This document shows, in pieces, positions 17,380-48,821 of a stretch of 64,000 nucleotides of DNA. The stretch is from Candidatus Aenigmatarchaeota archaeon (GTDB taxonomy: Archaea > Aenigmatarchaeota > Aenigmatarchaeia > Aenigmatarchaeales > JACQIB01), in the NCBI GenBank assembly GCA_016198755.1, contig JACQIB010000004.1:170913-234912 (forward strand), in the 5' to 3' direction. The translations under genes and the position numbers were made by a program. The first letter of the stretch is position 1. Every line of letters begins with the position of its first letter. The notes under the pieces are model-generated. The model ran no database searches. It was not told where the DNA came from and worked only from the letters and a program-made list of their open reading frames with translations.

Positions 17380-19173
17380 TCACGTCAAACTCTGCAGCAA
17401 TAGTATGCGCGTTGCCAATAATGTAACAGTAAAGACTATTAAAACCGCTGGAAATGATTCTGCCAGTTCAATACCGTTTGCAACAGGATCAGAACCCCAG
17501 CCTATCTTGCTAACATACCTTACAAGTACAAAGTTCAGTCCAATAGCATAAATCCCAACAATAAGTAAAAGTATATCAGGAGTTATGCTTGGTTTTGAAA
17601 TAAGTGTCGGACCTATGTTAGGAAGGTTCTGGGTTTGTATAGACTTTGTTATCATTTGAAAGAGCACAATTATAATTGAGGTTACAAGCGGGGAGAAAAC
17701 CAAAGCTGTTGCCTTCATCATTGTAAGGCTTTTTCTTAAAAGTTCTTTTATCCAGTCATCAACAGCATTCAACTTCTCTAGATAAGACAAAATAAGGGAA
17801 GCTGTGGAAGCTGCAGCAGCTGTTCCTCTGCTAAGGGAAGCTGCAATAAGTATAAGGAAAGACCTTATTAATTTTGAATCTATTTTCTCAAACTCAAGCG
17901 CTTTATTCAAAGGTAAGGAACCTGCACGCACTTTGTAAACAAGCCTGTCCAAAAGCCCTGCTATATCGCTCCCTTTGAGCAGTTTAGCTGTATAACTCAG
18001 AGCTTCTTCTATTGGCTTTCCCTCTGCAAGCTTGTTGCGTATATGGTAGAGAGCAGCAGGAAACTGTTCCTCTATCTTTCTAACCTCTTCCCGTTTTGCC
18101 TTGAACGGATAATAATTACTATAGTAGTAAACAAAAAACCCTATTCCAATACCCCATATTATAGGAAAAGTTGAGAGCGGCTTTACAGCAAGCAAAAACC
18201 ACTGGTTAATAATAACCCCAAAATAACCCAAAAGATAAACAAATCCCGGGAATGCAACCAGAAGGGAAAGCAAAATAGCAGCAGGCAAGCTTTTGTTTTC
18301 CAATTTGAACTCTATACCTCCCATTGAGGGGGGCCTTTTCCTGAGTATATGCTCTGAGTAAAGAAAGCTTGCAAAAAGCGTTGTAAAAAGGAAGAGAGAA
18401 GTTGGCAAAGGACCAACATCTGCCCCTAAAAACGATATTATTGGAAAGAGGGAGATTATCATTAGCGGGACGATTGTTCCTATACTGAAAAGCAAAAGTG
18501 TTGGTATATGCAGACCTGAAGCATACTCTTTTATTTTTGCTATCGTATCCTTCAAAAGCGTTTTTGTTGCCCTATCCAAATCCTTTATTTTAGCTTTTGG
18601 GTCAGACTCGCTGAAACTGGCTTCTATAAGAGAAACAGAAGACTGAAAAGCAGGGGAAAATTTCCCCCATTTCCTTCCAACTTTATCCAGTCCTTCCAAA
18701 GCATTCTTATACTTCCCAACAGCAACCTTCCAAACAGCTTTTTTCAGGTCATCAGCAACTAATCCAGTAGAATTCTCAGCTGCAAATTTCATTGCTCTCT
18801 CGGGTGAAGGGCTGCCTCTCAGGTATATGGAAAGCTGTGATAAAACTAAAGGAGCAGTACCCATGGCCTGCATAGCCTTGTCATTCGCAGCCATTTTAGG
18901 GTATTCTGTGAAAAGATAGAAAGTCAGGAAAGCTAAGGGAACTAAAAGTATAGTGTAGATTGGATTAAAGCCGAATAAAATAAATGAAAGAGACAATATT
19001 ATTGCTACTGTTGATAAAACAAGTAAATAAAAATAGCCGGCTCCTAATATTACCGCAGGCTCTGTTTTCAACTTTAACAATTTAGCAGCATTTATCAGTT
19101 CTTTGCTTGGCTCTGATTTTAACAGAGAACCTGGAAAACAGGCTTTATCAAAAAGGGAAATATAGTTAACCAA
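17380..19173 (-). CDS. FlaJ/TadC-like polytopic membrane platform protein of an archaeal type IV pilus
   Basis: 597 aa with two TM bundles separated by cytoplasmic domains. Overlaps the FlaI gene by 8 nt. Confidence 0.7.
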   Translation of the reverse strand: MVNYISLFDKACFPGSLLKSEPSKELINAAKLLKLKTEPAVILGAGYFYLLVLSTVAIILSLSFILFGFNPIYTILLVPLAFLTFYLFTEYPKMAANDKAMQAMGTAPLVLSQLSIYLRGSPSPERAMKFAAENSTGLVADDLKKAVWKVAVGKYKNALEGLDKVGRKWGKFSPAFQSSVSLIEASFSESDPKAKIKDLDRATKTLLKDTIAKIKEYASGLHIPTLLLFSIGTIVPLMIISLFPIISFLGADVGPLPTSLFLFTTLFASFLYSEHILRKRPPSMGGIEFKLENKSLPAAILLSLLVAFPGFVYLLGYFGVIINQWFLLAVKPLSTFPIIWGIGIGFFVYYYSNYYPFKAKREEVRKIEEQFPAALYHIRNKLAEGKPIEEALSYTAKLLKGSDIAGLLDRLVYKVRAGSLPLNKALEFEKIDSKLIRSFLILIAASLSRGTAAAASTASLILSYLEKLNAVDDWIKELLRKSLTMMKATALVFSPLVTSIIIVLFQMITKSIQTQNLPNIGPTLISKPSITPDILLLIVGIYAIGLNFVLVRYVSKIGWGSDPVANGIELAESFPAVLIVFTVTLLATRILLLQSLT

Positions 19174-21163
19174 GCTCTCCCCTCAGCCATTTCTTCCATC
19201 TCTGGAAGAGATTTTTCTTCCCTGATTCCAGAAGGGTATAATACATGCTGTTTGCACGCGCCAAAAAGTCGGCGCCCATGGCTTTAGGATTTTTCTTTGA
19301 AACTTTCAAAAGCTCAGCCTTCATTTTTCCCCTTAATTTAATATTTTTCAAAACATCTCTTATTCCTATTCCTTTGCTTTCTGCAATCTTTTTCAAAGTC
19401 TCAGACTTCTCAAGGCCGGAAACCCTCCATTTTCCTGTCTTCCTGTTATATTCCAGCAGTGTTTTGAAAACAGGCTCTCCCTTCCAATTCTTCCCAACCT
19501 CCTCTATGCTAAGTAGTTTCCTGTACCTTTTTAGGCTCTCCCCTTTCCTTATGCTTCCTGCAACAACCACAAAATCCACAGCCTTAAAGCTCGTGGAAGG
19601 AACCCCTAAATCATTTACAACCCTGTCCCATGTATCATATGCTGAAGAACCATGAATAGTTCCCATTACAGCATTTCCAGCTGCACCTATTCTCATTGCT
19701 TCAAACAATGCATGTGCTTCCTTCCCTCTTACCTCACCCATAACCAGCGTGCTTTCTCCCAGCCTTAAGCTCGTTCTGAGAGCATCTTCAGCGGAAATTT
19801 CAAACCCTTTTGCAAAAGCCTCCGTTTTCAAATGTTCAATCTTGTATCCTATGGTTTGCAAAGCACGCACAGGTATTTCAGCAGTATCCTCTATTGTTAC
19901 AATTCTTGTAGATTGTGGTATCTCTGCCATTAGAGAAGTTAGTATAGAGGTTTTACCTGAACCCCTCGAACCAGTAACCAGTATAGAGCTTTGTCCATCA
20001 ACTAAAAAGCTCAAAAAACCTGCAGCTGCACTATCTAACATTCCTGCATTCATGAACTCAACCAAAGTCCATGGGCTTGTTTTTCTCCTTCTGAAAGCAA
20101 ATCCTGTTCCTGAATAGGTAGAAGGCTGTGTTATACCACAAACCCTGATTCCCAGCTCCTCCAGCTCTGTATGTAAAACAGGGGTTGAAGCATCCAGCGG
20201 TCTGCCTGAAAGTTCCCTTAGTTTTGAGGAAATTTTCTCAGCACCCTCTTCAGTTAAAATAATGTTTGTTATGCATTCCCCGTGCTTTTCATGTACAATA
20301 TGCACTAATTTAGAACTTGAATCTATATACAAATCCTGTATTGCCTCATCCCTTAGCAAAGTATCCAGTGCTCCAAACCCTAAAGTATGGCGCAAAAGCA
20401 TACCTTTCATAACTTCCCTGTCTTCAGGCTCAGCTGCCATTGAAAGCTCTTCTACCCTTCTCCCAACTTCCTCTTTCAAAAGATCTGCTGAAAAGCTCCA
20501 GTCTGCCATTACAAGTTTTTTATAGGCTTCAGCAGCCTGCTTTGCAGCTTTTGCGGTCAAATCCAATTCAGGAAAATGAATAAAATAAAGTAAATCAGGC
20601 CTGTTTTCAATTTTGTGTATGCTAACCCTGATTTTGCTCACAGAATAGGAATCTATCTCTTCCCCTACTTTTTCTTTGTCCAAAAATGCTGAAACAAAAG
20701 AAGGATATCCCCATGCACTGAAAACTTTGTAAGCATCAGAAACTTTCCCAGCTCTTACAGCCTGCCTTATTAAAACCCAGCTTTTCAGTCTATCCTTTAT
20801 TTTATCCAATTCAGGATTGCACTGTTTACATGTTCTGTTATGAGCAAGCAGGAAGAAACGCACAGGATCTTCCCACCTGTTTCCTAAAGTTTGTTCACAT
20901 CTTGGACAGAGCACAAACTTTCCCAGTTCTTCCAAATACTTTTTATGCTTTTCCATTGAATAGAACTTGTAAAATCTCTTTTTCAGGGCAATCTGGTCTG
21001 CGCCCTTTTGCGCAAGCTGAAAAACCCATTTCCTGCATTGAGGGAGTTTTAGGCTTGATTTGAAAATACAGTCTTTACAGTCTATTTGTAAGACCTTCCC
21101 CTTTGGCAAAACCTGTAAAACCGAAGGGCATACCTCTTCCTGCCCATCCTTTGTGCGCAACAT
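19166..21163 (-). CDS. FlaI/VirB11/GspE-family secretion ATPase (archaeal type IV pilus assembly ATPase)
   Basis: Walker A GSRGSGKTS; Asp box TIEDTAEI; His box; N-terminal Cys-rich extension. Confidence 0.85.
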   Translation of the reverse strand: MLRTKDGQEEVCPSVLQVLPKGKVLQIDCKDCIFKSSLKLPQCRKWVFQLAQKGADQIALKKRFYKFYSMEKHKKYLEELGKFVLCPRCEQTLGNRWEDPVRFFLLAHNRTCKQCNPELDKIKDRLKSWVLIRQAVRAGKVSDAYKVFSAWGYPSFVSAFLDKEKVGEEIDSYSVSKIRVSIHKIENRPDLLYFIHFPELDLTAKAAKQAAEAYKKLVMADWSFSADLLKEEVGRRVEELSMAAEPEDREVMKGMLLRHTLGFGALDTLLRDEAIQDLYIDSSSKLVHIVHEKHGECITNIILTEEGAEKISSKLRELSGRPLDASTPVLHTELEELGIRVCGITQPSTYSGTGFAFRRRKTSPWTLVEFMNAGMLDSAAAGFLSFLVDGQSSILVTGSRGSGKTSILTSLMAEIPQSTRIVTIEDTAEIPVRALQTIGYKIEHLKTEAFAKGFEISAEDALRTSLRLGESTLVMGEVRGKEAHALFEAMRIGAAGNAVMGTIHGSSAYDTWDRVVNDLGVPSTSFKAVDFVVVAGSIRKGESLKRYRKLLSIEEVGKNWKGEPVFKTLLEYNRKTGKWRVSGLEKSETLKKIAESKGIGIRDVLKNIKLRGKMKAELLKVSKKNPKAMGADFLARANSMYYTLLESGKKNLFQRWKKWLRGELG

Positions 21164-21231
21164 GAAAAGTATTGGAACGAAAGCTTTTTAAACCCTGCTC
21201 AGGGGGATGTTTTCCACCACAATCTAGACCT

Positions 21232-21241
21232 CTTTATAAGC
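21232..21241 (+). promoter_or_regulatory. TATA-box-like element (ctttataagc) about 30 nt upstream of the pilin gene
   Basis: Archaeal TATA-like hexamer at the expected spacing from ATG 21270. Confidence 0.3.
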
Positions 21242-21269
21242 TTAAATTCATAGCCTGCAAATTTTCCAT

Positions 21270-21743
21270 GTGTTGCGCATGAAGGGGTTTTCAATAACAC
21301 CTGTTTTAGCTGTTGTACTGATACTTATAGCTGGCTTGACCCTGCTTACAATCTATACCATTGACAAAGAACAGGCTGCAGGAATACAGGCTGAGATAGA
21401 GGTAAACAGGCTTGGATATGAACTGGACCAGAACCGGACTTCAGAGCAGAATTTACTATTCCAGTTTGCTGCACAGGAGGCTGCTGATTCTAGTACAGAT
21501 ATAGCCACTTTCAAAACAGCTGTTGAGGGAGATTTGGACTTAAAGACAGGAACGCTGCTCTTGGATGGTTGCAGCAGCAAGTGGATAAATGTTTCCATTA
21601 ACTCAGCTTTTAACTATACTATAGGCAGAGCTGGAATAAACGCACCCTATTTTGCAAATGCCAGCATTAACTGCGATGCTGTTAAGCTATACGGTTCCAC
21701 AGCAAACATAAACTGCGGCGGTGAAACTTTCAGCTGCCCTTAA
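21270..21743 (+). CDS. Type IV pilin-like protein (class III signal peptide)
   Basis: MLRMKG|FSITPVLAVVLILIAGLTLL has a basic N-terminus, a KG cleavage-site-like motif, then a hydrophobic helix. Sits beside FlaI. Confidence 0.5.
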   Translation: MLRMKGFSITPVLAVVLILIAGLTLLTIYTIDKEQAAGIQAEIEVNRLGYELDQNRTSEQNLLFQFAAQEAADSSTDIATFKTAVEGDLDLKTGTLLLDGCSSKWINVSINSAFNYTIGRAGINAPYFANASINCDAVKLYGSTANINCGGETFSCP

Positions 21744-21749
21744 CAGAAT

Positions 21750-22832
21750 CTACCTGCGTTTCCAAGCCCTAGAGCCTTTAAGTCCGTGCGGAAATCCTGG
21801 GCGCGGGAAAGCTCTCCAAACACCCATTACACCATCCACTTTCCTTATCTCATTTCTGTGGAACCTGCTTACTTCCCTAGCTATTGCAGGTACATCACCA
21901 TTATACCAAGCATCCACAGCAGGTTGGAGCAAATATTTTGCTCTTCCAATTGAGCTTCTGCGTTGATGTGTAACGTTTGATAAAGAAACCCTGATAATTG
22001 GATTTTGTGATGCCATGATATTCGATCTTACTATCCAGCGATATGGTTTCACATTATCAACACGAATATGGTCAACATAACGCTGCATCATTCTGAGAGA
22101 AAAATGATCGAATATGTTGTATAGACTTCCCATTAAGTCCAGAAAAGTTCCGTTAGTGGAATATTCAACATTCTTTATATTGAGTCCTGTATTTAATCTC
22201 AAAAAATCTAATTCATCTTTTGCATCCATAGAAACGCTGGGGTGATAAATTGTTCTTTTTACGTCTTCACTGACAACTCCAACTTGTAACCTGTCGCTTG
22301 CATGTAAATCCCTGTTGCCAACCAACCCCAAGCTCCAAGCATAGGCAACAGCTTTTGTAAGATTGTCTATACTAAACTCTTTATCAGCAAAATCCTCTTC
22401 CATTGCTGGTAAAACATGGGTTTTTGCAGAACCTCCGCATGTATATTCTAACGGCCCACTAAAATCAACACCAGATGATTTACGTAATTCTATCTTGTAA
22501 ATCTCCGGATCACCGTTATGGAAATTGTTGCCTACAATTATTAGCGTACAGTGGAGATCTCTTTTTTTAGAGGCTTCTCCCCGCGCTATAGCCACAGCAG
22601 AAAAGTACGGTGACATCCCCTTACTGAAATATACCGGATTATTCAATAATTCTTGTATATAATCTACACTTCCAGAACTCACAACCAACGAACCGCCACA
22701 GTGATATAGTTTTTGTCTACCATTATACTTATGGTCAGAACCATTGGCCAAGTCATCTGCTACTACAACGGCATGTTTTGCCCTTGCATTTGTAGTTGGT
22801 ACAGTAAATGTAAATGCAGCTATATTAGTCAT
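21750..22832 (-). CDS. Proteasome-beta/HslV-like Ntn-hydrolase homolog (Thr2 directly after Met) with a roughly 170-aa C-terminal domain of unknown function
   Basis: MT-NIAAFTF; VVVADD..GS (Asp17-like); GRQKLYHCGG (Lys33-like); LIIVGNNFHNGDPEIYKI and CGGSAKT (GSG-loop-like). Paralog of 43736-44758. Confidence 0.5.
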   Translation of the reverse strand: MTNIAAFTFTVPTTNARAKHAVVVADDLANGSDHKYNGRQKLYHCGGSLVVSSGSVDYIQELLNNPVYFSKGMSPYFSAVAIARGEASKKRDLHCTLIIVGNNFHNGDPEIYKIELRKSSGVDFSGPLEYTCGGSAKTHVLPAMEEDFADKEFSIDNLTKAVAYAWSLGLVGNRDLHASDRLQVGVVSEDVKRTIYHPSVSMDAKDELDFLRLNTGLNIKNVEYSTNGTFLDLMGSLYNIFDHFSLRMMQRYVDHIRVDNVKPYRWIVRSNIMASQNPIIRVSLSNVTHQRRSSIGRAKYLLQPAVDAWYNGDVPAIAREVSRFHRNEIRKVDGVMGVWRAFPRPGFPHGLKGSRAWKRR

Positions 22833-22978
22833 ACAAAAAGCTAAGAATGAAACTTATTTAAACCCAACTTGCTCCCCTGTTAAAGAAAGTTTCAGCTGCT
22901 AAGTCTGCACTCATTTATATATGTTTCTAAAACGGAAACGATATGTTTACAAATAGGAAACACAATGTTTCTATTTTG

Positions 22979-24875: not shown

Positions 24876-25005
24876 TGGTGGACTCGGTGGGATTTTCTCC
24901 AAACCCTTTTGGGGTTTGCAAAGACCTTTTCGGAAAAGGGATTTGCTTTGAACCCACAACCTCTTGCTTGCAAAGCAAGCGATCTTCCAGTTGATCTACG
25001 AGCCC
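24876..25005 (-). tRNA. tRNA-Ala(TGC) with a roughly 54-nt intron in the T-loop (non-canonical position about 59/60); CCA encoded
   Basis: The minus strand reads GGGCTCG TA GATC AACTGGAA GATC G CTTGC TTTGCAA GCAAG AGGTT GTGGG TTCAAA[G-intron-T] CCCAC CGAGTCC A CCA. The exons assemble into a perfect 76-nt cloverleaf. Confidence 0.8.
24904..24953. repeat. 50-nt sequence identical to 52268-52317 (core of the T-loop intron shared by tRNA-Ala and tRNA-Leu)
   Basis: Exact match: cccttttggggtttgcaaagaccttttcggaaaagggatttgctttgaac. Confidence 0.9.
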
Positions 25006-29912: not shown

Positions 29913-30701
29913 TCATGCTAGAAGCTTCGAAAAAGGTTTTATAATATTAATCAACTTATACACTGATTGATTAACAAGAACATCATTATATTCTTCCTTT
30001 ACAATATCTATAGCATCTTTTTGTATATTGCCTTCTAATATTGCTATCAATCTTACATAGGGATATTTTTGTCGAATTTTCATAGCTCTATAAGCAAGTT
30101 CTACGGCTTGCAAACGTTTCCTATAATTGAAATTCATTTGCTTTACCTCAATTATTATTTTGGGTATATTTTCAGAAGGCAAGGCAAAATCTACTACAAA
30201 ATTTCTATTGGTCCTCACTAGGGCATGAAACTTATGTGAAATGCCCAATTTCTGAAAGATTTCTATATATCTTTTTTCTTGTTCTGTAGGACCTTTTATT
30301 ATTGCACCTTTCAGAGATCTTTCTTTAGACGCCTTTAAACTCATTTTTCTTGCGCGTTCAGTATCTCTAAAAGTGCCGCGTTCGGAAATTTCATAATACC
30401 TGCGTATTAAGATTTCCCTAGAAGGAATTCTTTGCATGCATTTAATTTCTTCAAACACTTTGTTTATTACTTTTTCGTCTACACTTTTTCTAAATCCTTT
30501 CTCTATATTATAGACTGTGCCTTGACTCTTCCCTATAAACTTTGCTAATTGCCACTGACTCATATTCAATATTAAACGTAGAATCAGCAATCTCTGCGGT
30601 TTTGTATATATAATTTCAGGTTTCAGTTTCCTTAAACTGTCTGTTGTTCTATATACTTCATCACAGAGATTTTTTAATTTTAGCTTGTTTATGGTAATCA
30701 C
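29913..30701 (-). CDS. Intron-encoded putative homing endonuclease: N-terminal XRE-type HTH plus C-terminal PD-(D/E)XK nuclease-like domain (262 aa)
   Basis: HTH MSQWQLAKFIGKSQGTVYNIEKG; nuclease motif FVVDFALP...IIIEVKQ (D...E-x-K). Sits entirely inside the rRNA intron, with the stop overlapping the exon junction. Confidence 0.55.
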   Translation of the reverse strand: MITINKLKLKNLCDEVYRTTDSLRKLKPEIIYTKPQRLLILRLILNMSQWQLAKFIGKSQGTVYNIEKGFRKSVDEKVINKVFEEIKCMQRIPSREILIRRYYEISERGTFRDTERARKMSLKASKERSLKGAIIKGPTEQEKRYIEIFQKLGISHKFHALVRTNRNFVVDFALPSENIPKIIIEVKQMNFNYRKRLQAVELAYRAMKIRQKYPYVRLIAILEGNIQKDAIDIVKEEYNDVLVNQSVYKLINIIKPFSKLLA

Positions 30702-30757
30702 CGATATTATATTATATCGGTAACTACTATTTAACCCTTTACAGAGCTTCTAACTTT
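29916..30757 (-). mobile_element. 16S rRNA intron (about 840 nt) in the 3' domain, carrying an HTH + PD-(D/E)XK ORF
   Basis: Exon sequence ...GGCGAACGTCAT is interrupted and resumes ...GAATTCGTTCGCCGAATACGTCCCTG (the equivalent of E. coli position about 1360-1380). Confidence 0.7.
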
Positions 30758-31059
30758 ATGACGTTCGCCTACTATGAATTCCGGCTTCATGTGGGCGAGT
30801 TGCAGCCCACAATCTGGACTAAGATTGGGTTTAGGGGGTTAGCTTTGCCTTTCGGCATTGCATCCCATTGTCCCAACCATTGTAGGACGCGTGTAGCCCA
30901 GAGAATTCGGGCCGTACGGACCTACCGTCGCCCACTCCTTCCTCTGCTTTAGCAGCAGCGGTCCCGCCATTGTGCTCTCTCCCCGGAGGGAAAGGTGGCA
31001 AATGGCAGCGTGGGTCTCGCTCGTTAACGGACTTAACCGCACGCCTCAAGGTACGAGCT

Positions 31060-31219
31060 TTCTCGTCTTAGCAGCCCTCATACAAAACATTATCTTACTT
31101 TTCTCTATGTTTTACATAATTAGCATTCCACCAACGTCGTATCAGTATTAAGTTTGAATACTGGTTGCATATCGTTGTTGAAATTTTTCAATATCCCAAT
31201 TAAATTGAGACTGCCAAGA
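31060..31219 (-). other. Insertion of about 155 nt (ORF-less intron, likely BHB-type) in the 16S near the E. coli 1050-1070 region
   Basis: The conserved CATGGCCGTCGTCAGCTCGTACC is split: ...catggccatcgtca | 150 nt AT-rich | agctcgtaccttgagg. Flanking cttggcag/ctgctaag can pair to close the insert. Confidence 0.6.
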
Positions 31220-31763
31220 TGACGATGGCCATGCAACTCCTCTCAGCTTGTCTGGTAAACCCGTTAGGCTGACCCTCATTCTGCTGTCTTCTCTGGTAAG
31301 ATGTCCGGTGTTAAATCCAATTGAACCGCATCCTCCACTCATTGTGTGTTCCCCCGCCAATTCCTTTAAGTTTCAGCCTTGCGGCCGTACTCCCCAGGTG
31401 GCCCGCTTAACATCTACACTTCGGCACTGCATGTTCACGTAGAACGTGCAACACCAAGCGGGCATCGTTTACGGCTGGGACTACTGGGGTATCTAATCCC
31501 AATCGCTCCCCCAGCTGTCGCCCCTCACTGTCAGACTCGTTTTCGGTAGACGCCTTCGCCACAGGTGGTCCTCCACGGATTAAAGGATTTAACCCCTACA
31601 CGTGGAATACCTCTACCGTCTCCCGATCTCAAGGCTTGGAGTATCTCCAGCGCGCCTGACAGTTAGCTGCCAGATTTCACCAGAGACTTTCAAGCCCAGC
31701 TACGGGCGCTTTAGACCCAATAAACGCGATAGCCATTTGGACCGCGGGTATTACCGCGGCGGC

Positions 31764-31795
31764 GTGTGCGAACAAAGTCTACTGACTTTGAACAT
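31764..31795 (-). other. Hairpin insertion of about 30 nt inside the universal 515F/530-loop sequence of the 16S
   Basis: GTGCCA | tgttcaaagtc-agtag-gactttgttcgcaca | CGCCGCCGCGGTAATAC. The insert forms a 7-bp perfect stem, caaagtc/gactttg. Confidence 0.6.
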
Positions 31796-32249
31796 GGCAC
31801 CCGTCTTACCCAGTCCTTATTCGCCTAGGTTTTTAGCCTAAGCAAAAGCTCGTGCAAAGCACGAGCACTCGAGGTTCCCTTCTCACACGCTAATGCATTG
31901 GAAAGTTTTCGCTCCTGCTGCGACCCGTAGGCCCTGCGCTCATGTCTCAGAGCGCATCTGGAGGCTCACACTCTCATGTCCCCTACCCGTCACAGGCTTG
32001 TCAGTTTTATAAAGCAGGTAGCTTATGCTACCAAAAATTATTTTGGCAAACTAAGTTTGCCTATGCACTTTACACTGACAACAACCTGATAGGCCGCAGT
32101 CCCATTCTATGGCGCCGGAGCTTTCACTTTTGGTGCATTCCAGCATCCAAAAACTATGGGGCATTAGCCTCACTTTTGCGTTCACTTTCAAAAGAAAGTG
32201 GAATTCGCAAGATTATTCCCCACCATAGAGTAGGTTAACTACGTGTTAC

Positions 32250-32921
32250 TCAGCAGTGCGCCGAGGGCAAGAGCGGATTAAATAGAACCTTACCAGTCTT
32301 TTTACAATAAAAATAGTTTTTAAATTCCTTAGAAAGACATCTTACTTTTTCTAACTTTAGTGGATGTTTAAATTTTATTATTCTACAAAACTTTCTAAAA
32401 TTTTTAGCACCTTTTATTCGCCACCAATATACATCGTTTTTTCCATAAACTTTTGATACATGAATACCATATGTTTCTAATAATTCTTTACTCCATATGC
32501 AAAAATCCTTAGATTTAATTTGTAGTTCTATTACAGGATATTCATATATAGACATCATGGTCTTTCTCTTATACCTTTGGACTTCTTTGAATACGGAACA
32601 ATCACCATCAAAAAATCCTATAAGAAAATTCATCTTTTCTTTTCTATTTATGTGCACTGGTGGAGTGATGTCATGAGACTTTTTCCCTGGTTTTATATGA
32701 TAAAGTCTCTTAAATTTTTCGTATAGCTTACGATCACTTACCCTTATCTGAAATACTCTTTTTCTTAATTTGTAAGTAACCTTGTTTTTTGCAAATTTTT
32801 GAAGATTTTTTACTATATCATCTCTGAAGCGCTTGTTATTTGTGTAGACATAGACATACGGTCTATATTTTTCTAAATGACCATCTGCAGCTATTAAACC
32901 GGCCATATAAGAAAATTTCAT
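32250..32921 (-). CDS. LAGLIDADG-family homing endonuclease (double-motif, intron-encoded)
   Basis: Two LAGLIDADG motifs are present: MAGLIAADGHL and LIGFFDGDCSV. Confidence 0.85.
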   Translation of the reverse strand: MKFSYMAGLIAADGHLEKYRPYVYVYTNNKRFRDDIVKNLQKFAKNKVTYKLRKRVFQIRVSDRKLYEKFKRLYHIKPGKKSHDITPPVHINRKEKMNFLIGFFDGDCSVFKEVQRYKRKTMMSIYEYPVIELQIKSKDFCIWSKELLETYGIHVSKVYGKNDVYWWRIKGAKNFRKFCRIIKFKHPLKLEKVRCLSKEFKNYFYCKKTGKVLFNPLLPSAHC

Positions 32922-41115: not shown

Positions 41116-43710
41116 ATGCCTGAGGTCTGGGAAATAACTGCTGGTGAGGTTTTAAAAGAGTTAAATGGTTCTGAAGCTGGGTTAAGAACAGAAGAGGCGC
41201 AGCGCAGGCTGAAAAAATTTGGGCCAAACACAATAGAAAGAAAGCATGGACATGGCCCGTTAACAATTTTTGCAGAGCAGTTCAAGAGCTTTTTGGTTTT
41301 GCTTTTGGTTTTTGCAGCTGTAATTTCAGTTTTTTTCGGGGAGTTTATTGACTCTGCTGCTATAGCTATAATATTAGTTATAAATGCATTGTTAGGATTC
41401 TGGCAGGAATATAAGTCTGAAAAAGCCATAGAAGCCATTAAGAAAATGGTTGTTGAAAGAGCTATTGTTCTGAGGGATGGGACTAAATTGGAAATTCCAG
41501 CTGAAGAGCTTGTGCTGGGAGATATTGTTTTTATAGAAGCTGGTGAAAGAATACCAGCAGATATAAGGATTTTGCAGAGTTTTGGATTAAGGCTGGATGA
41601 ATCTATACTTACAGGAGAGTCTGTTTCTGTTGGAAAAATTACAGAAAAAGTACAGGGAAAACAACTGGGAGACAGAAAAAATATGCTTTACATGGGAACT
41701 TTGGCTGTTGAAGGTACAGGAAAAGGTGTTGTTGTAAGCACAGGTTCAGGAACAGAAATGGGAAAAATAGCAAAACTTATAGAAGAACCTGAGGAACCTA
41801 CAAAATTCCAGAAAGATATGGATAAGTTCGGGAAGAGAGTAGGCTATATAATAGTGGTTATTGCACTGGCTGTTTTCCTTTTGGATATGCTGCGCGGTGC
41901 TGGTCCAGTTAACTCTGCACTCATTGCAATAACTTTGGCTGTGGCAGCTGTGCCCGAAGGTTTGCCTGCTGTTGTAACAATAACCCTTGCAATAGGAATC
42001 CAAAAAATGGCAAAAAGAAACGCTTTCGTGCGCAGATTATCCTCAGTGGAAAGTTTGGGTATGATAACTGTTATTTGCGCTGACAAGACAGGCACAATGA
42101 CTTCTAACCAAATGACAGTCAGGAAAATATGGGCTAAAGGAAAGGAAATTGATATTACTGGTCTGGGCTATACTCCTGAAGGGAAATTTTTAGACGGGAA
42201 GAAAGAAACAACACTTGGAAAGGAAGAACTTTTGCTTTTGCGCACTGGTATGCTCTGTAATAATGCTGCACTCAGGCAAAATAAAGGCTGGGAAATTATT
42301 GGTGACCCGACTGAAGGGGCATTAATTGTAGCTGCTGAAAAAGCAGGTGTTAATGTGAAAGTGGAGAGAATATATGAAATACCCTTTAGCTCTGAAAGGA
42401 AGATGATGAGTGTTGTTTCTAAAGAAAAAGACGGTTTGTATGTGTATACAAAGGGAGCGCCGGAAATTATTCTTAATCATTGTATAAGAGAAATCGGAGG
42501 GCAGATGACATCAAGTAAAAAATACAATATACAGGAAGAGTTCAGGAAAATGGCTGAATCCGGTTTAAGGGTGCTTGCTCTGGCTTACAAACCTTTTGAT
42601 GGGAATCTGAAACGAGCAGAAGAAGGCTTGGTTTTCATTGGATTAGTAGGTATGATTGATCCTCCAACAGAAGAAACAAAACATTCTGTAGCTGTCTGTA
42701 AGGAAGCTGGTATAAGGCCAATAATGATAACAGGAGATCATTTGCTTACAGCAAAAGCAATATCAAAAGAAGTTGGTATAGAAGGAGAAGCTGTTACAGG
42801 GGAGGATTTGGAAAAGACAGATGAGGAATTGACAAAAACTCTGGATAATATTTCTATATTCGCAAGGGTTTCCCCGCTACAGAAGCTAAAAATTATAGAA
42901 GCTCTGCATAAGCGCGGAGAACTGGTTTCAATGACAGGAGATGGTGTGAATGATGCACCGGCTCTGAAAAAGGCTGATGTTGGAGTTGCTATGGGCAGGA
43001 GAGGAAGCGATGCAGCCAGAGAAGCTTCAGATATAGTGCTTGCTGATGATAATTTTTCAACTATTGTTTATGCTGTGGAAGAGGGGAGGGGAATTTTTGA
43101 CAATATAAAGAAATTTGTACATTATCTTATAGGAGCGAATATTGCAGAAGTTCTGGCTGTCCTTGGTTCCTTAGTATTTTTCCTTCCACTGCCCTTTACT
43201 CCATTGCAGCTTTTATGGATAAATCTTACAACAGATGGTTTGCCTGCATTGGCGCTGGGCTTTGAGAAAAAACAGAAAGAAATAATGAAAGAAAAGCCAA
43301 AAGGAACTGAATCTGGTATATTGAAAGGGAGCTGGAGTTTCCTGTTTGCTGTAGCTGTTGTAGGTGCTGCAGCAGTTCTTTTTAGCCTGTTCCTCACACT
43401 TCCTCAGGGAATTGAAAAAGCCCGCACCGTGGCGTTCACAACAATGACGTTTTTTGAGTTGTTCCTCGTTTTCAGCATACACGCTGGAAAAGATGGGCTG
43501 TTAAAAGCAAACCCATTCTCAAACACTAAGCTTGTGCTGGCTGTATTAACTTCAGTTTTGCTTCAACTCTTAGTTATTTATTTTGTTCCTCTACAGACAC
43601 TTTTCGATACAGTTCCACTCGCTTTAGGCGATTGGCTAACTATTTTGCTCTTGTCTGCGACAGGTCTATTTGTTTCTCCAAAGCTTTTCCTCGAGAAAAA
43701 TCAGGTTTAA
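41116..43710 (+). CDS. P-type ATPase, type IIA (Ca2+/cation-transporting)
   Basis: DKTGT(M)T phosphorylation site; PEGLP in TM4; TGDGVNDAPALKKADVGVAMG hinge; TGES actuator motif. Confidence 0.9.
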   Translation: MPEVWEITAGEVLKELNGSEAGLRTEEAQRRLKKFGPNTIERKHGHGPLTIFAEQFKSFLVLLLVFAAVISVFFGEFIDSAAIAIILVINALLGFWQEYKSEKAIEAIKKMVVERAIVLRDGTKLEIPAEELVLGDIVFIEAGERIPADIRILQSFGLRLDESILTGESVSVGKITEKVQGKQLGDRKNMLYMGTLAVEGTGKGVVVSTGSGTEMGKIAKLIEEPEEPTKFQKDMDKFGKRVGYIIVVIALAVFLLDMLRGAGPVNSALIAITLAVAAVPEGLPAVVTITLAIGIQKMAKRNAFVRRLSSVESLGMITVICADKTGTMTSNQMTVRKIWAKGKEIDITGLGYTPEGKFLDGKKETTLGKEELLLLRTGMLCNNAALRQNKGWEIIGDPTEGALIVAAEKAGVNVKVERIYEIPFSSERKMMSVVSKEKDGLYVYTKGAPEIILNHCIREIGGQMTSSKKYNIQEEFRKMAESGLRVLALAYKPFDGNLKRAEEGLVFIGLVGMIDPPTEETKHSVAVCKEAGIRPIMITGDHLLTAKAISKEVGIEGEAVTGEDLEKTDEELTKTLDNISIFARVSPLQKLKIIEALHKRGELVSMTGDGVNDAPALKKADVGVAMGRRGSDAAREASDIVLADDNFSTIVYAVEEGRGIFDNIKKFVHYLIGANIAEVLAVLGSLVFFLPLPFTPLQLLWINLTTDGLPALALGFEKKQKEIMKEKPKGTESGILKGSWSFLFAVAVVGAAAVLFSLFLTLPQGIEKARTVAFTTMTFFELFLVFSIHAGKDGLLKANPFSNTKLVLAVLTSVLLQLLVIYFVPLQTLFDTVPLALGDWLTILLLSATGLFVSPKLFLEKNQV

Positions 43711-43714
43711 ATAG
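43707..43714 (+). promoter_or_regulatory. TATA-like element (tttaaata) 22 nt upstream of ATG 43736
   Basis: Consistent with a leaderless archaeal transcript. Confidence 0.3.
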
Positions 43715-43735: not shown

Positions 43736-44758
43736 ATGACTTCGATATCAGCTCTGGCTGGCAGTAGGCAAGTAGGTGGGATGCTCGGCAACACTGAAAG
43801 GTTTGTAGTCACGCAAACAGACAGCCAGGAAACCTTTGTAGATAACCATGGTCCATACCAGAAGGATGGGAACGCACTTAAAACAAGGTATTTGGGCAGA
43901 TGCCTTGTAATGGGCACTGGCCAGGGATATCTTATTGAACATGCTACAGATAATTCACACATATTAGAACAGGATACACCAAAAGAGGTTGCAGAAAAAC
44001 TTTTTGAAACGACAAACGGGAGAGAATATGGAACAAAGGGTCTGTCTTTTATAGTTGCCGGGAATGATGGGAAAACCTCAGAAATCTACCATGTACACGC
44101 TTCCCCAAAGAAAAGCAGGAGGGTATCAGGACCAGTTGGTTGGATATTTGACGGGTCTGGGGCAAGGTTAATGAGGCCTGCATTTGAGAGAGATATAAAA
44201 AATGGAGCGCTTAATCTAAATATGGGCACCCTTCAGATGAGCATGGCAGATCTTATCTCATATCAGTGGAATCTTGGGGACAATGCAGCAAATGATATAG
44301 GTGTGAACGATAGGTGGGAAGTTGGATTGGTTACTCCTGATAAAATACGGACTCTTATAAGCCCAACAGTTCCTTTATGGAGCACAGCTCTTGAGGAGTA
44401 TATACAGCTTAATTTAGGTGTGAACGTAACAGATTCGGAAAAGATGGGTCCTTTCTGGGGGGTAATGAACGACCTGCACCATGCGATAGAAATAGGATGC
44501 AGGAGACTGGGTCAGGCAGATTATAGGCTAAATCAAACCTTCGGTAATCAAAAATACAGACCCGCTGGTAATAGGGTAGACGAACTGATTAAAAGCAAGC
44601 TCTCTGAGAGGGATGAAGAACGCAGAAAACTGGGTGTTCTGGTTGATGCATGGTATTCTGGAGAGTTGGAAACTGTTGTAACTGCTCTTGATATGTTTAG
44701 CGATGAAAGGAAAACTATGAGAACGAAGGCAGTGGAAATTGCAAGACAAGCTGCTTAA
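43736..44758 (+). CDS. Proteasome-beta/HslV-like Ntn-hydrolase homolog (Thr2 after Met) with a roughly 150-aa C-terminal extension; paralog of 21750-22832
   Basis: MT-SISALAG; RFVVTQTDSQ; LKTRYLGRCLVMGTGQG; GLSFIVAGNDGKTSEIYHVHASP...VSGPVGWIFDGSGA. This is a strong match to the proteasome beta pattern GLIVAGWD..GPQLY.IDPSG....A.GSGS. Confidence 0.55.
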   Translation: MTSISALAGSRQVGGMLGNTERFVVTQTDSQETFVDNHGPYQKDGNALKTRYLGRCLVMGTGQGYLIEHATDNSHILEQDTPKEVAEKLFETTNGREYGTKGLSFIVAGNDGKTSEIYHVHASPKKSRRVSGPVGWIFDGSGARLMRPAFERDIKNGALNLNMGTLQMSMADLISYQWNLGDNAANDIGVNDRWEVGLVTPDKIRTLISPTVPLWSTALEEYIQLNLGVNVTDSEKMGPFWGVMNDLHHAIEIGCRRLGQADYRLNQTFGNQKYRPAGNRVDELIKSKLSERDEERRKLGVLVDAWYSGELETVVTALDMFSDERKTMRTKAVEIARQAA

Positions 44759-45219: not shown

Positions 45220-45347
45220 TTACCACATTGGAAAAGAAGGTATAAAAAGGTATAGTTAACACTCATTGCTTTATTTACAATCTACTATATTATGATTGGG
45301 GGGAGAGTGTGAGAACCTTAAATAGTAGCGTCAAAATATTTATAAAT

Positions 45348-48300
45348 ATGTCAAAAAAACTCTCGCCTGCATCTGTTATCGTTGCTGTATTAATTGTTGC
45401 CGTTATTTTCCTGACATTTAGTGGGAATATTGTACTACATGCAGTAACTCCGGGACAGAATGTAACAGTCTGCGACGTGATAAATGCAGCAGGGAACTAC
45501 TATATGAATGCCAGTATAGGAAATAGCGGTTCTTCCACCTGCGTAGATATAACCCAGGGCAATGTGCTCTTGGACTGCAGGGGATTTGCAATAGATGGAA
45601 TCGATACTTCTGGCACAAACGGCATAAGAGCAGCAGCCACCAACAATGTAACAATAACAAACTGCACAGTTTCAGACTGGGGAACAGGAATAGACCTGTT
45701 AGATGTAAAAAACGGGACTGTAACAAATGTTACAGCAAGCTCAAACGGAAACGGTATATATATAGCTACGCTCGGTCCTGGATCACATAGCATTTTGGTT
45801 GAAAATTCTACTCTGAACTCAAATGTGGATGGTGTACATATAGAATCTGCACATAATGTTACAATAGCCAACAGCACTGTTTTTTCTAACACCGGCTATG
45901 GAATATATGATTTTGCAGGCAATAACACAACGATATTCAACAATACCATAAGCTTCTCTGCTCTGGATGGAATAGCCATTTTTGCCAATATAACAAACAT
46001 AACAAACAACACAATAAACTCCAACACAAGATACGGCATAAACATAACTACCACATCAGATACAAACGCTAGCATTATGGGTATGAATTTTATAAAAAAT
46101 AACACAAAAGCCGGCATACGTGCCTATGGATACGGTTACTATATAATTAACAACACTCTGCTATCAAATGGATGGGATGGCATAGAAGCGTATATAAACA
46201 CTAGTGCTGTATTGAACAATACAATAACCTCAAATTTCTACAGCGGAATTTTTCTCAATGCTTCCTATAACACAACAATACAAAACAATACATTGGCCTC
46301 TAATTCACAGGCAGGCCTGAATACCACAGACTCTAGGAACAATACAATAAGGGGAAACATTATAAAATCCAATTCCGCGGGCGGGGTTTTCCTGAACTTC
46401 TCTTCTAACAGCAGCATGGAAGGCAATATGATATTTTCCAATTCGGCGTCAGGCATACAATTTATATTCAACAGCACAAACAACACTGTTGTAAACAATA
46501 CAATACAGCTTAGCGGCCAGAATGGCATTTATATTTTAGGCAATTCCACGAACAACTCTGTGATAAACACACTGTTGCTACAAAACAGTATAGATGCCAT
46601 AAGAATAGAATCTGTTAGCAATTACACAAACATAACAGGCAACTTTATATCAGGCAACAACCGCGGCATTTATATTACAAATACAGGCGGAACAAGGCTG
46701 CATAACAATACTATGAGCTCAGATGGCACCGGAATGTATATACAAAACTCTGGGGGAGTAAACATGACAAACAACAGCATATCCAGTCTGAATGCAAGAT
46801 TTGATGTGAGAGGATCTGTTGTTGCCGATTTTGACAACTGGATAGACACCAGCAATAATATAGATTTCAACCCGATATACTACTGGGTAAGGCAGTATAA
46901 CCAGACAATGGATTCTGCTACAAATGCTGCCTATATAGCTGTGGTAAGCAGCAGCAACATAACTGTCAGAAATATTAACCTAAAAAATAATGCTCAGGGA
47001 ATTGTATTTGTAAATGCTTCAGATTCCATAATAAACAACACTAACACAACGTCCAGCAGCCAGTATGCGATATATATCCACCTCTCAAACAACAATAGTA
47101 TTGGAAATCTGTCTGCCGGTTCTAACAGCTTAGCTGATGGCATCTATATGTCAAACTCGACAAACAACACTATTAAAAATATAACAATAAACAGCAATTC
47201 GCGGGGAATGAATATTTATTATTCAAACAATAACACAATTTATAACAATACATTCAACTCTAACTCAGGCACCGGCGTAGACTTGGAAACTTCACATAAC
47301 AACACTGTATCAAACAACACTATACGTTCGGGTGGCGGCCATGGTATAATACTTGGTGGAGCGAGTAACAATACTGTCTCAAAAAATATTATCAGCCTTG
47401 TTAGAAACAGTGGTATACTTCTGCAGGTCTTCAGCAACGGCAATTATATAATAAACAATACACTTTCGAACAACACGCAGGAAGGGATTTTAATGACACA
47501 ATCCAACAACAATACTGTTAATAACAACACTATATCATCTAATATGCAAAACGGTATATACATAACTGGTGTGAATACTGTCGGACTGAATAGTATCAAC
47601 AACAGCATCAACTATAACACCATATTTTACAATGGTAACAACGGAATTTATGCAGATACTGCCAGTGATAATAACAGTTTTACAAACAGCACGGTCTCCC
47701 ACAATATCCTGAGTGGCATAAACCTTAGCCAGTCCAGTAATAATACTTTCCACAACATAATTCTCTCCAACAACACTCTATGGGACTTCTTTTCTGACAG
47801 CAATTCCATGAATAACAGCGCAACTTCAATGGCAGTTGGCTCGACAACATTAAGCTTTAGTGGAAGAGATATTGGTTTAAAGAACTCCAGCTCACCTGCT
47901 TCATCCCCTAGCGGATATACAGCTCTTGGCAAGTATGTTAATTTGAGCAATGCTACAACTTCCTCATGGTCTATATTGAACTTTTCCTATTCTGACTCTG
48001 ACATATCGGGCCTGACAGAAGGGAGTGCTATAATAGGTAGATATACTGAAAGTGCATGGGGAACTAATGTTTCTGCTTTTTCCTCGGGAGTTACAATAAA
48101 CACTGCAAACAATTACATATATACAAATGTAAGCAACTTCAGCATCTTCGGTGCGTTTGCCCCCACTACTACCACTACTCCGTCTTCCCCGTCATCTACG
48201 AGCAGCGGGGGTGGAGGAGGTGGTGGATACAGCCCTTACGTACCATCTTATGATATAAAAGTGCATGCCAGTGAAACTGTTTTTAAGCTGGAAAAGAACC

Positions 48301-48821
48301 AAAATAAAACAATAACAGTAACTTTGGAAAATAATGGTACAGATAATCTTACAGGCATAATTGTAAGGCTCATTGGGATTAACAATGCAACATATAGGGT
48401 AAATGGGCTGCCTGATTCTCTAAATGTAAATGAAAGTGTTGTCTTCACAATTACATTTACCTCAGCAGAAGAAGCGTACAATGTAAAGAGATTATTTATA
48501 AACACAACGCAGGGTGTGCATACTGAACTGTCCCTTTCAATAACACCTGATGGTGCAACAACAACCCTGCAAAAGCAGTGCTCTGTCTGCCCTGCTGTCG
48601 GGGAATTCGGTATATGTGAAAACTTCAAACAACAACGCACAATATACAAGTGCGGTCCTGATACAGACTATGTTTGCAAAGCAAATATAGAGGAAAGTGC
48701 ATGTATACCACTAACTCCAGAGGAAAGGAAATCTGTTTCTGTTATAGCCATACTATCGATATTCTCTATAGTAATACTATTCAAACTTAAAGTACACGCT
48801 ATAAGTTCCTTTGTAAAATAA
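45348..48821 (+). CDS. Giant surface protein (about 1,157 aa): signal/anchor, many parallel beta-helix (PbH1/NosD-like) repeats, an extremely high density of N-x-S/T sequons, a Cys-rich C-terminal module and a C-terminal TM helix
   Basis: Repeating 22-25-aa units (xNNTIxxNxxxGIxxxxSxN). C-terminal CSVCPAVGEFGICENF...C.C plus SVIAILSIFSIVILFKL. TATA-like ccttaaatag about 27 nt upstream of ATG 45348. The tracked GTG at 45309 is unlikely to be the start. Confidence 0.75.
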   Translation: MSKKLSPASVIVAVLIVAVIFLTFSGNIVLHAVTPGQNVTVCDVINAAGNYYMNASIGNSGSSTCVDITQGNVLLDCRGFAIDGIDTSGTNGIRAAATNNVTITNCTVSDWGTGIDLLDVKNGTVTNVTASSNGNGIYIATLGPGSHSILVENSTLNSNVDGVHIESAHNVTIANSTVFSNTGYGIYDFAGNNTTIFNNTISFSALDGIAIFANITNITNNTINSNTRYGINITTTSDTNASIMGMNFIKNNTKAGIRAYGYGYYIINNTLLSNGWDGIEAYINTSAVLNNTITSNFYSGIFLNASYNTTIQNNTLASNSQAGLNTTDSRNNTIRGNIIKSNSAGGVFLNFSSNSSMEGNMIFSNSASGIQFIFNSTNNTVVNNTIQLSGQNGIYILGNSTNNSVINTLLLQNSIDAIRIESVSNYTNITGNFISGNNRGIYITNTGGTRLHNNTMSSDGTGMYIQNSGGVNMTNNSISSLNARFDVRGSVVADFDNWIDTSNNIDFNPIYYWVRQYNQTMDSATNAAYIAVVSSSNITVRNINLKNNAQGIVFVNASDSIINNTNTTSSSQYAIYIHLSNNNSIGNLSAGSNSLADGIYMSNSTNNTIKNITINSNSRGMNIYYSNNNTIYNNTFNSNSGTGVDLETSHNNTVSNNTIRSGGGHGIILGGASNNTVSKNIISLVRNSGILLQVFSNGNYIINNTLSNNTQEGILMTQSNNNTVNNNTISSNMQNGIYITGVNTVGLNSINNSINYNTIFYNGNNGIYADTASDNNSFTNSTVSHNILSGINLSQSSNNTFHNIILSNNTLWDFFSDSNSMNNSATSMAVGSTTLSFSGRDIGLKNSSSPASSPSGYTALGKYVNLSNATTSSWSILNFSYSDSDISGLTEGSAIIGRYTESAWGTNVSAFSSGVTINTANNYIYTNVSNFSIFGAFAPTTTTTPSSPSSTSSGGGGGGGYSPYVPSYDIKVHASETVFKLEKNQNKTITVTLENNGTDNLTGIIVRLIGINNATYRVNGLPDSLNVNESVVFTITFTSAEEAYNVKRLFINTTQGVHTELSLSITPDGATTTLQKQCSVCPAVGEFGICENFKQQRTIYKCGPDTDYVCKANIEESACIPLTPEERKSVSVIAILSIFSIVILFKLKVHAISSFVK

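Follow-up and report, generated by a model that had tools for sequence, protein, structure and literature searches.

Two paralogous genes of an Aenigmatarchaeota genome belong to a divergent, mostly DPANN archaeal family of predicted proteasome-beta-like Ntn hydrolases that carry a conserved helical domain at the C terminus

Introduction

A 64,000-nucleotide stretch of a Candidatus Aenigmatarchaeota genome (contig JACQIB010000004.1, positions 170,913 to 234,912; this whole stretch is called the window here) contains two genes, copy 1 and copy 2, whose products are annotated only as "hypothetical protein" in a Candidatus Aenigmarchaeota archaeon metagenome-assembled genome (MAG) at NCBI (loci HY362_03185 and HY362_03305). 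An earlier note on this DNA, made from the letters alone, had proposed that the two are paralogs resembling the proteasome beta subunit and HslV, with a threonine directly after the initiator methionine and additional C-terminal sequence, and that they could represent a new protease or ligase family. The locus thus raises the question of what these proteins are and how they stand toward the proteasome homologs already known, for which Fuchs, Alva, and Lupas catalogued 22 new families in 2021 (PMC8665760). As described below, the two genes belong to another deep branch, found mostly in DPANN archaea, of the proteasome-like N-terminal nucleophile (Ntn) hydrolases, one that has a conserved helical domain, and their products are probably propeptide-free peptidases with an N-terminal threonine.

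Results

The two genes and their family

Both open reading frames (ORFs), with their Met-Thr starts, were present exactly where the earlier note had placed them, and BLASTP bore out their paralogy (24% identity across 235 amino acids; E=1e-17). This pairwise similarity was confined to residues 96 to 324, that is, to the C-terminal domain and the latter half of the catalytic domain, and did not include the N-terminal motifs.

21750..22832, minus strand: copy 1 gene, 360 amino acids plus stop, starting MTNIAAF (HY362_03185)
43736..44758, plus strand: copy 2 gene, 340 amino acids plus stop, starting MTSISAL (HY362_03305)

Neither protein matched Pfam or NCBIfam even at E values of up to 10, and searches of the PDB, PHROGs, and PADLOC with the single sequences gave nothing significant for either one, the sole hint in PHROGs being phrog_1040, "peptidase HslV family," at an E value of 0.4. 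In a word-indexed search of 5.8 billion proteins, each window protein retrieved itself only, and three proteins only were returned when the family alignment served as the query. The family surfaced by one route alone: when a profile built from two sequences was run with HMMER exhaustively against 1.84 billion cluster representatives, it gave 95 proteins at E values of 1e-3 or below, 44 of these at 1e-10 or below. Two of the 95 (P0084 and P0089) were repeat proteins and were discarded. The remaining 93 true relatives are clusters at 50% identity and are mostly 300 to 370 amino acids long, apart from a small number of fragments. The family divides into at least five subfamilies. The window proteins stand apart from all of the other members, to none of which the identity exceeds 22% for copy 1 or 32% for copy 2; the two scored 193.6 and 262.7 bits, respectively, against the family hidden Markov model (HMM).

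Named members were from Aenigmarchaeota, Woesearchaeota, Nanoarchaeota, and unclassified "archaeon" MAGs, most of them DPANN; every named member seen was an archaeal MAG protein. The family was found almost only in metagenomes, and no RefSeq protein was present among the 32 family clusters checked. One unnamed subfamily lies in a plainly archaeal neighborhood that encodes Spt5, SecE, GINS, and a RIO kinase, and one member had been automatically annotated by IMG as "20S proteasome alpha/beta subunit." Family members were also carried by two third-party annotation (TPA) bins labelled "uncultured Methanosarcinales archaeon" (L010 and L012), so either the family extends past DPANN or these short contigs were mis-binned. 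A phage origin was rejected, since a scan of viral contigs found no family members and the matches in BFVD were limited to single-domain proteasome homologs of phages that aligned weakly (TM score of about 0.3); a role as a defense system was likewise rejected for lack of PADLOC matches. No papers later than the 2021 catalogue that describe the family were found.

The N-terminal domain has the proteasome-beta fold and a catalytic site in register with yeast beta1

When the family profile was compared with the PDB, proteasome-type chains only were recovered, the top match being beta6 of Vairimorpha (E=5.6e-10); BPH and HslV were matched at E values of 0.029 and 0.059, respectively. The alignment with yeast beta1 (E=3.9e-8) begins at mature Thr1, and in this register the Asp, Lys, Gly, and Gly-Ser-Gly of the family fall on Asp17, Lys33, Gly47, and Gly128-Ser129-Gly130. 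The Pfam Proteasome family (PF00227) was weakly matched by 8 of 46 members (best E=4e-4), and no other Pfam family recurred. An AlphaFold2 (AF2) model computed with the family alignment (pLDDT, 88.1; pTM, 0.86) has the strand and helix order of a beta subunit, with H1/H2 (residues 56 to 87) and H3/H4 (residues 137 to 172) present, and shows a four-layer alpha-beta-beta-alpha fold with proteasome-subunit topology. Modelled strands of the copy 1 N-terminal domain span residues 4 to 12, 17 to 26, 42 to 55, 95 to 133, and 182 to 196, and its helices span residues 56 to 87 and 137 to 172. The nearest structures in a fold search were 20S beta subunits, HslV not being especially near. Profile and fold searches alike therefore put residues 1 to 200 in the proteasome-beta Ntn fold and not in a non-Ntn fold.

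The domains and the residues of the predicted active site are as follows; the counts were made across all 93 sequences.

22233..22832, minus strand: copy 1 proteasome-beta-like Ntn-hydrolase domain, residues 1 to 200
22827..22829, minus strand: codon of copy 1 Thr2, which is aligned with mature Thr1 of yeast beta1 and is predicted to be the N-terminal nucleophile once Met has been removed
22755..22757, minus strand: copy 1 Asp26, Asp17 equivalent (D in 82/84)
22710..22712, minus strand: copy 1 Lys41, Lys33 equivalent (K in 84/84)
22671..22673, minus strand: copy 1 Gly54, equivalent of the oxyanion-hole Gly47 (G in 89/89)
22428..22430, minus strand: copy 1 Ser135 in G134-S135-A136, Gly128-Ser129-Gly130 equivalent (S in 80/91; G134 in 91/91)
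43736..44371, plus strand: copy 2 proteasome-beta-like domain, residues 1 to 212 (boundary from the alignment to copy 1)
43739-43741, plus strand: copy 2 Thr2
43820-43822, plus strand: copy 2 Asp29
43880-43882, plus strand: copy 2 Lys49
43919-43921, plus strand: copy 2 Gly62
44156-44158, plus strand: copy 2 Ser141

Of the 77 N termini that could be aligned, 75 have Thr at position 2 and the other 2 have Ser; the sequences outside this count are fragments or have visibly mis-called starts. Thr2 is thus conserved in homologs. In the 46-sequence alignment (copy 1 numbering), K41, G54, G101, and G134 were invariant and M1, T2, D26, G136, Q183, and P198 were at least 90% conserved. Where H4 begins, 81 of the 93 members have an acidic residue (D166-like). 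The arrangement like Thr1/Asp17/Lys33/Gly-Ser-Gly that had been claimed for the two ORFs is therefore in register with yeast beta1 and near-invariant in the family. The individual motifs named at the outset could also be located, namely, the Asp17-like hVVxxD block as AVVVADD and FVVTQTD and the VAGN, EIY, and GSA blocks as LIIVGNN and SFIVAGND, EIYKI and EIYHV, and GGSA and DGSGA. The proposed KxRY(H/L)G block is exact in copy 2 (LKTRYLG), but copy 1 matches it only loosely (QKLYHCG).

Support for the Met-Thr N termini

In both genes, an in-frame stop lies 7 codons 5' of the ATG, which is the earliest possible start thereafter, and the sequence GGTTTAAATA precedes each of the two ATGs at exactly 22 nucleotides.

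22855..22864, minus strand: GGTTTAAATA, box like a B recognition element (BRE)/TATA box, 22 nucleotides 5' of the copy 1 ATG
43704..43713, plus strand: GGTTTAAATA, BRE/TATA-like box, 22 nucleotides 5' of the copy 2 ATG

The copy 1 box is probably its own promoter, giving a leaderless mRNA, and the copy 2 box falls at the 3' end of the P-type ATPase gene that precedes copy 2 and overlaps the stop codon of that gene. Window-wide, TATA-like boxes (TTTAAATA, TTTATATA, and similar sequences) stand 17 to 27, mostly 21 to 24, nucleotides before about 12 ORF starts (examples are at positions 2555-2564, 22855-22864, and 43704-43713, with about 10 more in the window). This recurrence suggests that leaderless transcripts are common in the source genome. 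Taken from these sequence features, the predicted Met-Thr N terminus of both copies is well supported because the upstream stop, the box at 22 nucleotides, and the leaderless pattern all point to the same ATG.

A conserved all-alpha domain follows the catalytic domain

The earlier note had counted 150 to 170 extra C-terminal residues with no recognizable motif. The C-terminal 140 to 160 residues form a conserved domain, for which neither sequence nor fold searches found a relative.

21810..22232, minus strand: copy 1 conserved all-alpha C-terminal domain, residues 201 to 341, including the motif VDAWYNGD and followed by a short tail
44372..44734, plus strand: copy 2 C-terminal helical domain, residues 213 to 333, homologous to that of copy 1, with the motif VDAWYSGE

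In the model, the C-terminal domain is a multi-helix fold, conserved across the family, with copy 1 helices at residues 204 to 215, 228 to 259, 263 to 276, 278 to 310, and 314 to 341.

Comparison with known proteasome-fold families

The canonical 20S beta subunit (PsmB; MEROPS T1; PF00227) is a single domain of about 200 to 220 amino acids that usually has a propeptide and assembles with alpha subunits. In contrast, the window proteins, at 360 and 340 amino acids, and their relatives have no propeptide, add the conserved C-terminal helical domain of about 140 to 160 amino acids (about 140 in the window proteins), and have a Thr-to-Asp spacing about 8 residues longer (24 versus 16). They are about 10 to 17% identical to 20S beta subunits, lie below the Pfam threshold, carry motifs of their own (GVNDKLQxG, YHP, and DAWxSGD), and have no alpha-subunit gene near them. 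HslV, whose propeptide-free threonine start the two proteins had been said to share, is a bacterial single domain of about 175 amino acids encoded beside hslU, its AAA+ partner; the window proteins have none of these features. The absence of a propeptide was upheld, but it is not special, since it is the rule among noncanonical proteasome homologs (PMC8665760). Anbu is bacterial, has a single extra helix (H5, a coiled coil) at its C terminus, and is encoded in a conserved operon, whereas the window family is archaeal, with a far larger helical domain and no conserved neighbors. Connectase (MJ0548; DUF2121), like the window proteins, is a monocistronic proteasome homolog of archaea in which Thr follows Met and a further domain is present at the C terminus. 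Connectase has, however, lost H1/H2 and gained a two-helix insertion between S3 and S4 (PMC8665760); neither change is seen in the window proteins, the modelled fold of which is clearly not connectase-like.

The homologs catalogued in 2021 also lack propeptides, several have uncharacterized C-terminal domains, and their gene context is uninformative; the archaeal candidates among them are WPH, PHI, PMI-1 to PMI-4, GPH, and ACC (PMC8665760). PHI and PMI-2 to PMI-6 are disfavored, as long insertions are absent from the AF2 model at three places: behind H2, from S3 to S4, and from H3 to H4. ACC resembles the window family in being archaeal, in being represented by few and very divergent sequences with no assigned function, in lacking a propeptide, and in having a C-terminal helical extension and an uninformative gene context. 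By description only, the two differ in that the H5 helix of ACC is lengthened as a coiled coil, whereas in the model of the window family the long C-terminal helices pack into one folded domain of several helices, about 140 residues in size; moreover, the ACC representative is a RefSeq protein (WP_161937350.1/KEGG OC.1179207), whereas the named members here are all from MAGs. The window family may nevertheless overlap ACC, with its coiled-coil C terminus, as far as a comparison by description only can tell. The branch is uncharacterized, and the proposal of a new protease or ligase family is weakened by the 22 families already catalogued and by the possible overlap with ACC.

Gene context and paralog pairs

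The family HMM, run on the six-frame translation of the window, recovered just copies 1 and 2 and no canonical proteasome subunit in the 64 kb. Copy 2 comes after the P-type ATPase gene, and the gene that converges with it encodes a DJ-1/PfpI protein. An FeS (iron-sulfur)-assembly gene and a glycosyltransferase gene lie 5' of copy 1, which is tail-to-tail with a 157-amino-acid ORF; this ORF bears an N-terminal hydrophobic segment and may encode a pilin. It is part of a type IV pilus/archaellum-like cluster that adjoins copy 1.

17380-21743: cluster comprising a weak T2SSF-like membrane protein (597 amino acids), a T2SSE ATPase (665 amino acids, with a long cysteine-rich N-terminal extension), and the divergently transcribed 157-amino-acid ORF

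Loci were collected with a sub-alignment, since the sequences of the family as a whole diverge too much for this purpose; it retrieved 5 GTDB loci, 8 metagenome loci, and 0 viral loci. All-versus-all comparison of the ORFs in 9 and then 21 loci revealed no common partner beyond close synteny. Classic-clade AAA ATPases were encoded 1.7 to 2.8 kb from family genes in 2 of the 21 loci (L015, 8767-10212; L023, 2063-3205), the one in L023 being PAN-like (Prot_ATP_ID_OB_C plus AAA plus lid). TrmB-family regulators were found near family genes in 3 loci (L020, 512-1396; L023, 3220-4014; L009, 11891-12622), and the one in L020 is directly divergent from the family gene. Both were dismissed as partners, being too sporadic among the 21 loci, and the proximity of TrmB may be coincidental, since such regulators are common in archaea.

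On two archaeal contigs, members of a divergent subgroup occur as tandem pairs, on the same strand and with a gap of 10 to 31 bp.

L015, 4890-7053: tandem pair, Candidatus Woesearchaeota MAG JAWOBY010000019.1
L016, 3143-5234: tandem pair, European Nucleotide Archive (ENA) groundwater contig

In these pairs, the upstream gene starts with MTY(I/V)G (Thr nucleophile) and the downstream gene with MSN or MSH (Ser at position 2). The succession of a Thr-type and a Ser-type gene suggests a two-subunit enzyme and supports the view that family members may work in pairs or mixed assemblies.

Other features were noted elsewhere in the window.

24936-24998, minus strand: tRNA match of 30.9 bits, barely over the Rfam threshold and covering model positions 8 to 63 only, which could represent a tRNA that is degenerate, split, or interrupted by an intron
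30689-32314, minus strand: 16S rRNA gene of archaeal type (Rfam, 1035 bits), about 150 bases longer than the 1478-position model at 1626 bases
32250-32921, minus strand: LAGLIDADG homing-endonuclease ORF, overlapping the 5' end of the 16S rRNA gene
45309-48821, plus strand: 1170-amino-acid protein with a hydrophobic segment at the N terminus, a hydrophobic anchor at the C terminus, and dozens of Asn-rich "NNT/NxS" repeats, which, to judge from the letters alone, look like those of a right-handed beta-helix surface protein

Discussion

The fold, the register with yeast beta1, and the conservation of the catalytic residues lead us to consider it probable that copies 1 and 2 are members of a mostly DPANN-archaeal family of proteasome-beta-like Ntn hydrolases that act as propeptide-free, N-terminal-Thr peptidases. 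In the mechanism that we propose, the TATA box of each gene would direct the synthesis of a leaderless mRNA, which would be translated from the annotated ATG. Methionine aminopeptidase tolerates Thr as the second residue, and since Thr is permitted there, the enzyme would take off Met1 so that Thr becomes residue 1, with neither a propeptide nor autoprocessing needed. The Thr1 hydroxyl would then attack the peptide bond, with Lys41 and Asp26 (Lys49 and Asp29 in copy 2) acting as the Lys33/Asp17 pair, Gly54 (Gly62) forming the oxyanion hole, and Gly-Ser135 (Ser141) supporting the site. The C-terminal domain of about 140 residues and four to five helices is presumed to be noncatalytic and would most likely serve in self-assembly, possibly of mixed paralogs, or in the recognition of substrates or partners.

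Several points weigh against this interpretation. The peptidase role is predicted from sequence and a model, and hydrolases and transpeptidases are indistinguishable by sequence. Neither window protein reaches the PF00227 gathering threshold. The 160-residue extension could block proteasome-like rings, and no unfoldase or other partner was consistently adjacent among the 21 loci. In addition, copy 1 departs from the family in having Lys160 where 81 of 93 members have Asp or Glu, Ala136 for Gly, and HASDRLQ for GVNDKLQ. By its sequence, copy 1 is the more derived paralog, and because of these departures and its lower family score, it could be less active than, or a regulatory partner of, copy 2.

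The same departures and the score of 193.6 versus 262.7 bits would also fit the view that one or both copies are catalytically dead scaffolds, like proteasome alpha and the inactive beta subunits of eukaryotes. We regard such pseudo-enzymes as highly improbable because the catalytic triad is invariant: Thr2, Asp, Lys, Gly, and Ser are retained in both copies, inactive proteasome subunits have typically lost Thr1, and the catalytic residues are strongly conserved in a family whose members otherwise share only about 20% identity. An active site of this kind could also serve a sequence-specific transpeptidase (protein ligase) of the connectase type, a monomer in which Thr1 would form an acyl-enzyme with a target-protein motif that is resolved by an amine and not by water, the helical domain conferring specificity. 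The shared catalytic constellation, the missing propeptide, the extra C-terminal domain, and the lack of a conserved unfoldase partner all fit such an enzyme, and connectase proves that proteasome homologs can ligate (PMC7980362; PMC8665760); given the connectase-unlike fold described above, we consider a ligase unlikely.

The proteins might instead replace the canonical 20S proteasome or be specialized subunits of it, operating with alpha-type rings or with PAN or Cdc48 and using the helical domain as an alpha ring or gate. Their fold is nearest to genuine beta subunits, a canonical subunit is absent from the 64-kb window, 2 of 21 loci have an AAA ATPase of the classic clade, PAN-like in one case, no more than 3 kb away from a family gene, and the paralog pairs are reminiscent of the alpha/beta duplication. 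Yet the window covers 64 kb, whereas the contig measures 243 kb or more, and Nanobdellota, a DPANN phylum, are reported to have a canonical proteasome subunit in their conserved core (bioRxiv 10.64898/2026.05.13.725050), so that coexistence is expected; the adjacency of AAA genes is rare and not conserved; and the family is highly divergent and looks patchy, the search of 5.8 billion proteins having returned the window proteins themselves only. We therefore hold such a replacement to be very unlikely. Beyond the peptidase that we favor, a bolder proposal would be an undescribed archaeal, largely DPANN branch distinct from all 22 catalogued families, in which the helical domain drives a new quaternary architecture and paralog pairs form a self-contained two-subunit Thr/Ser protease or ligase. 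This proposal is tentative and, in our judgment, doubtful; if it were true, the window genes and the Woesearchaeota Thr/Ser tandem pairs would be examples, and the class of substrates might relate to the reduced, host-dependent lifestyle.

That many propeptide-free proteasome homologs with odd C termini exist is already established. The proteasome-like Ntn hydrolases span enzymes from general proteases to connectase, a precise protein ligase that is now a biotechnology tool, and for this reason each new branch is a candidate for new forms of chemistry or assembly. What is notable for the present branch is the combination of 93 clusters, genome-reduced DPANN hosts, an intact propeptide-free catalytic site, and, often, paralog pairs. 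Because no Pfam or NCBIfam model covers the family, annotation pipelines mostly output "hypothetical protein" for its members. Characterization would tell if the helical domain stands in for ring assembly, acts as a gate to the active site, or picks substrates, and would add a data point on the diversification of the proteasome fold in archaea.
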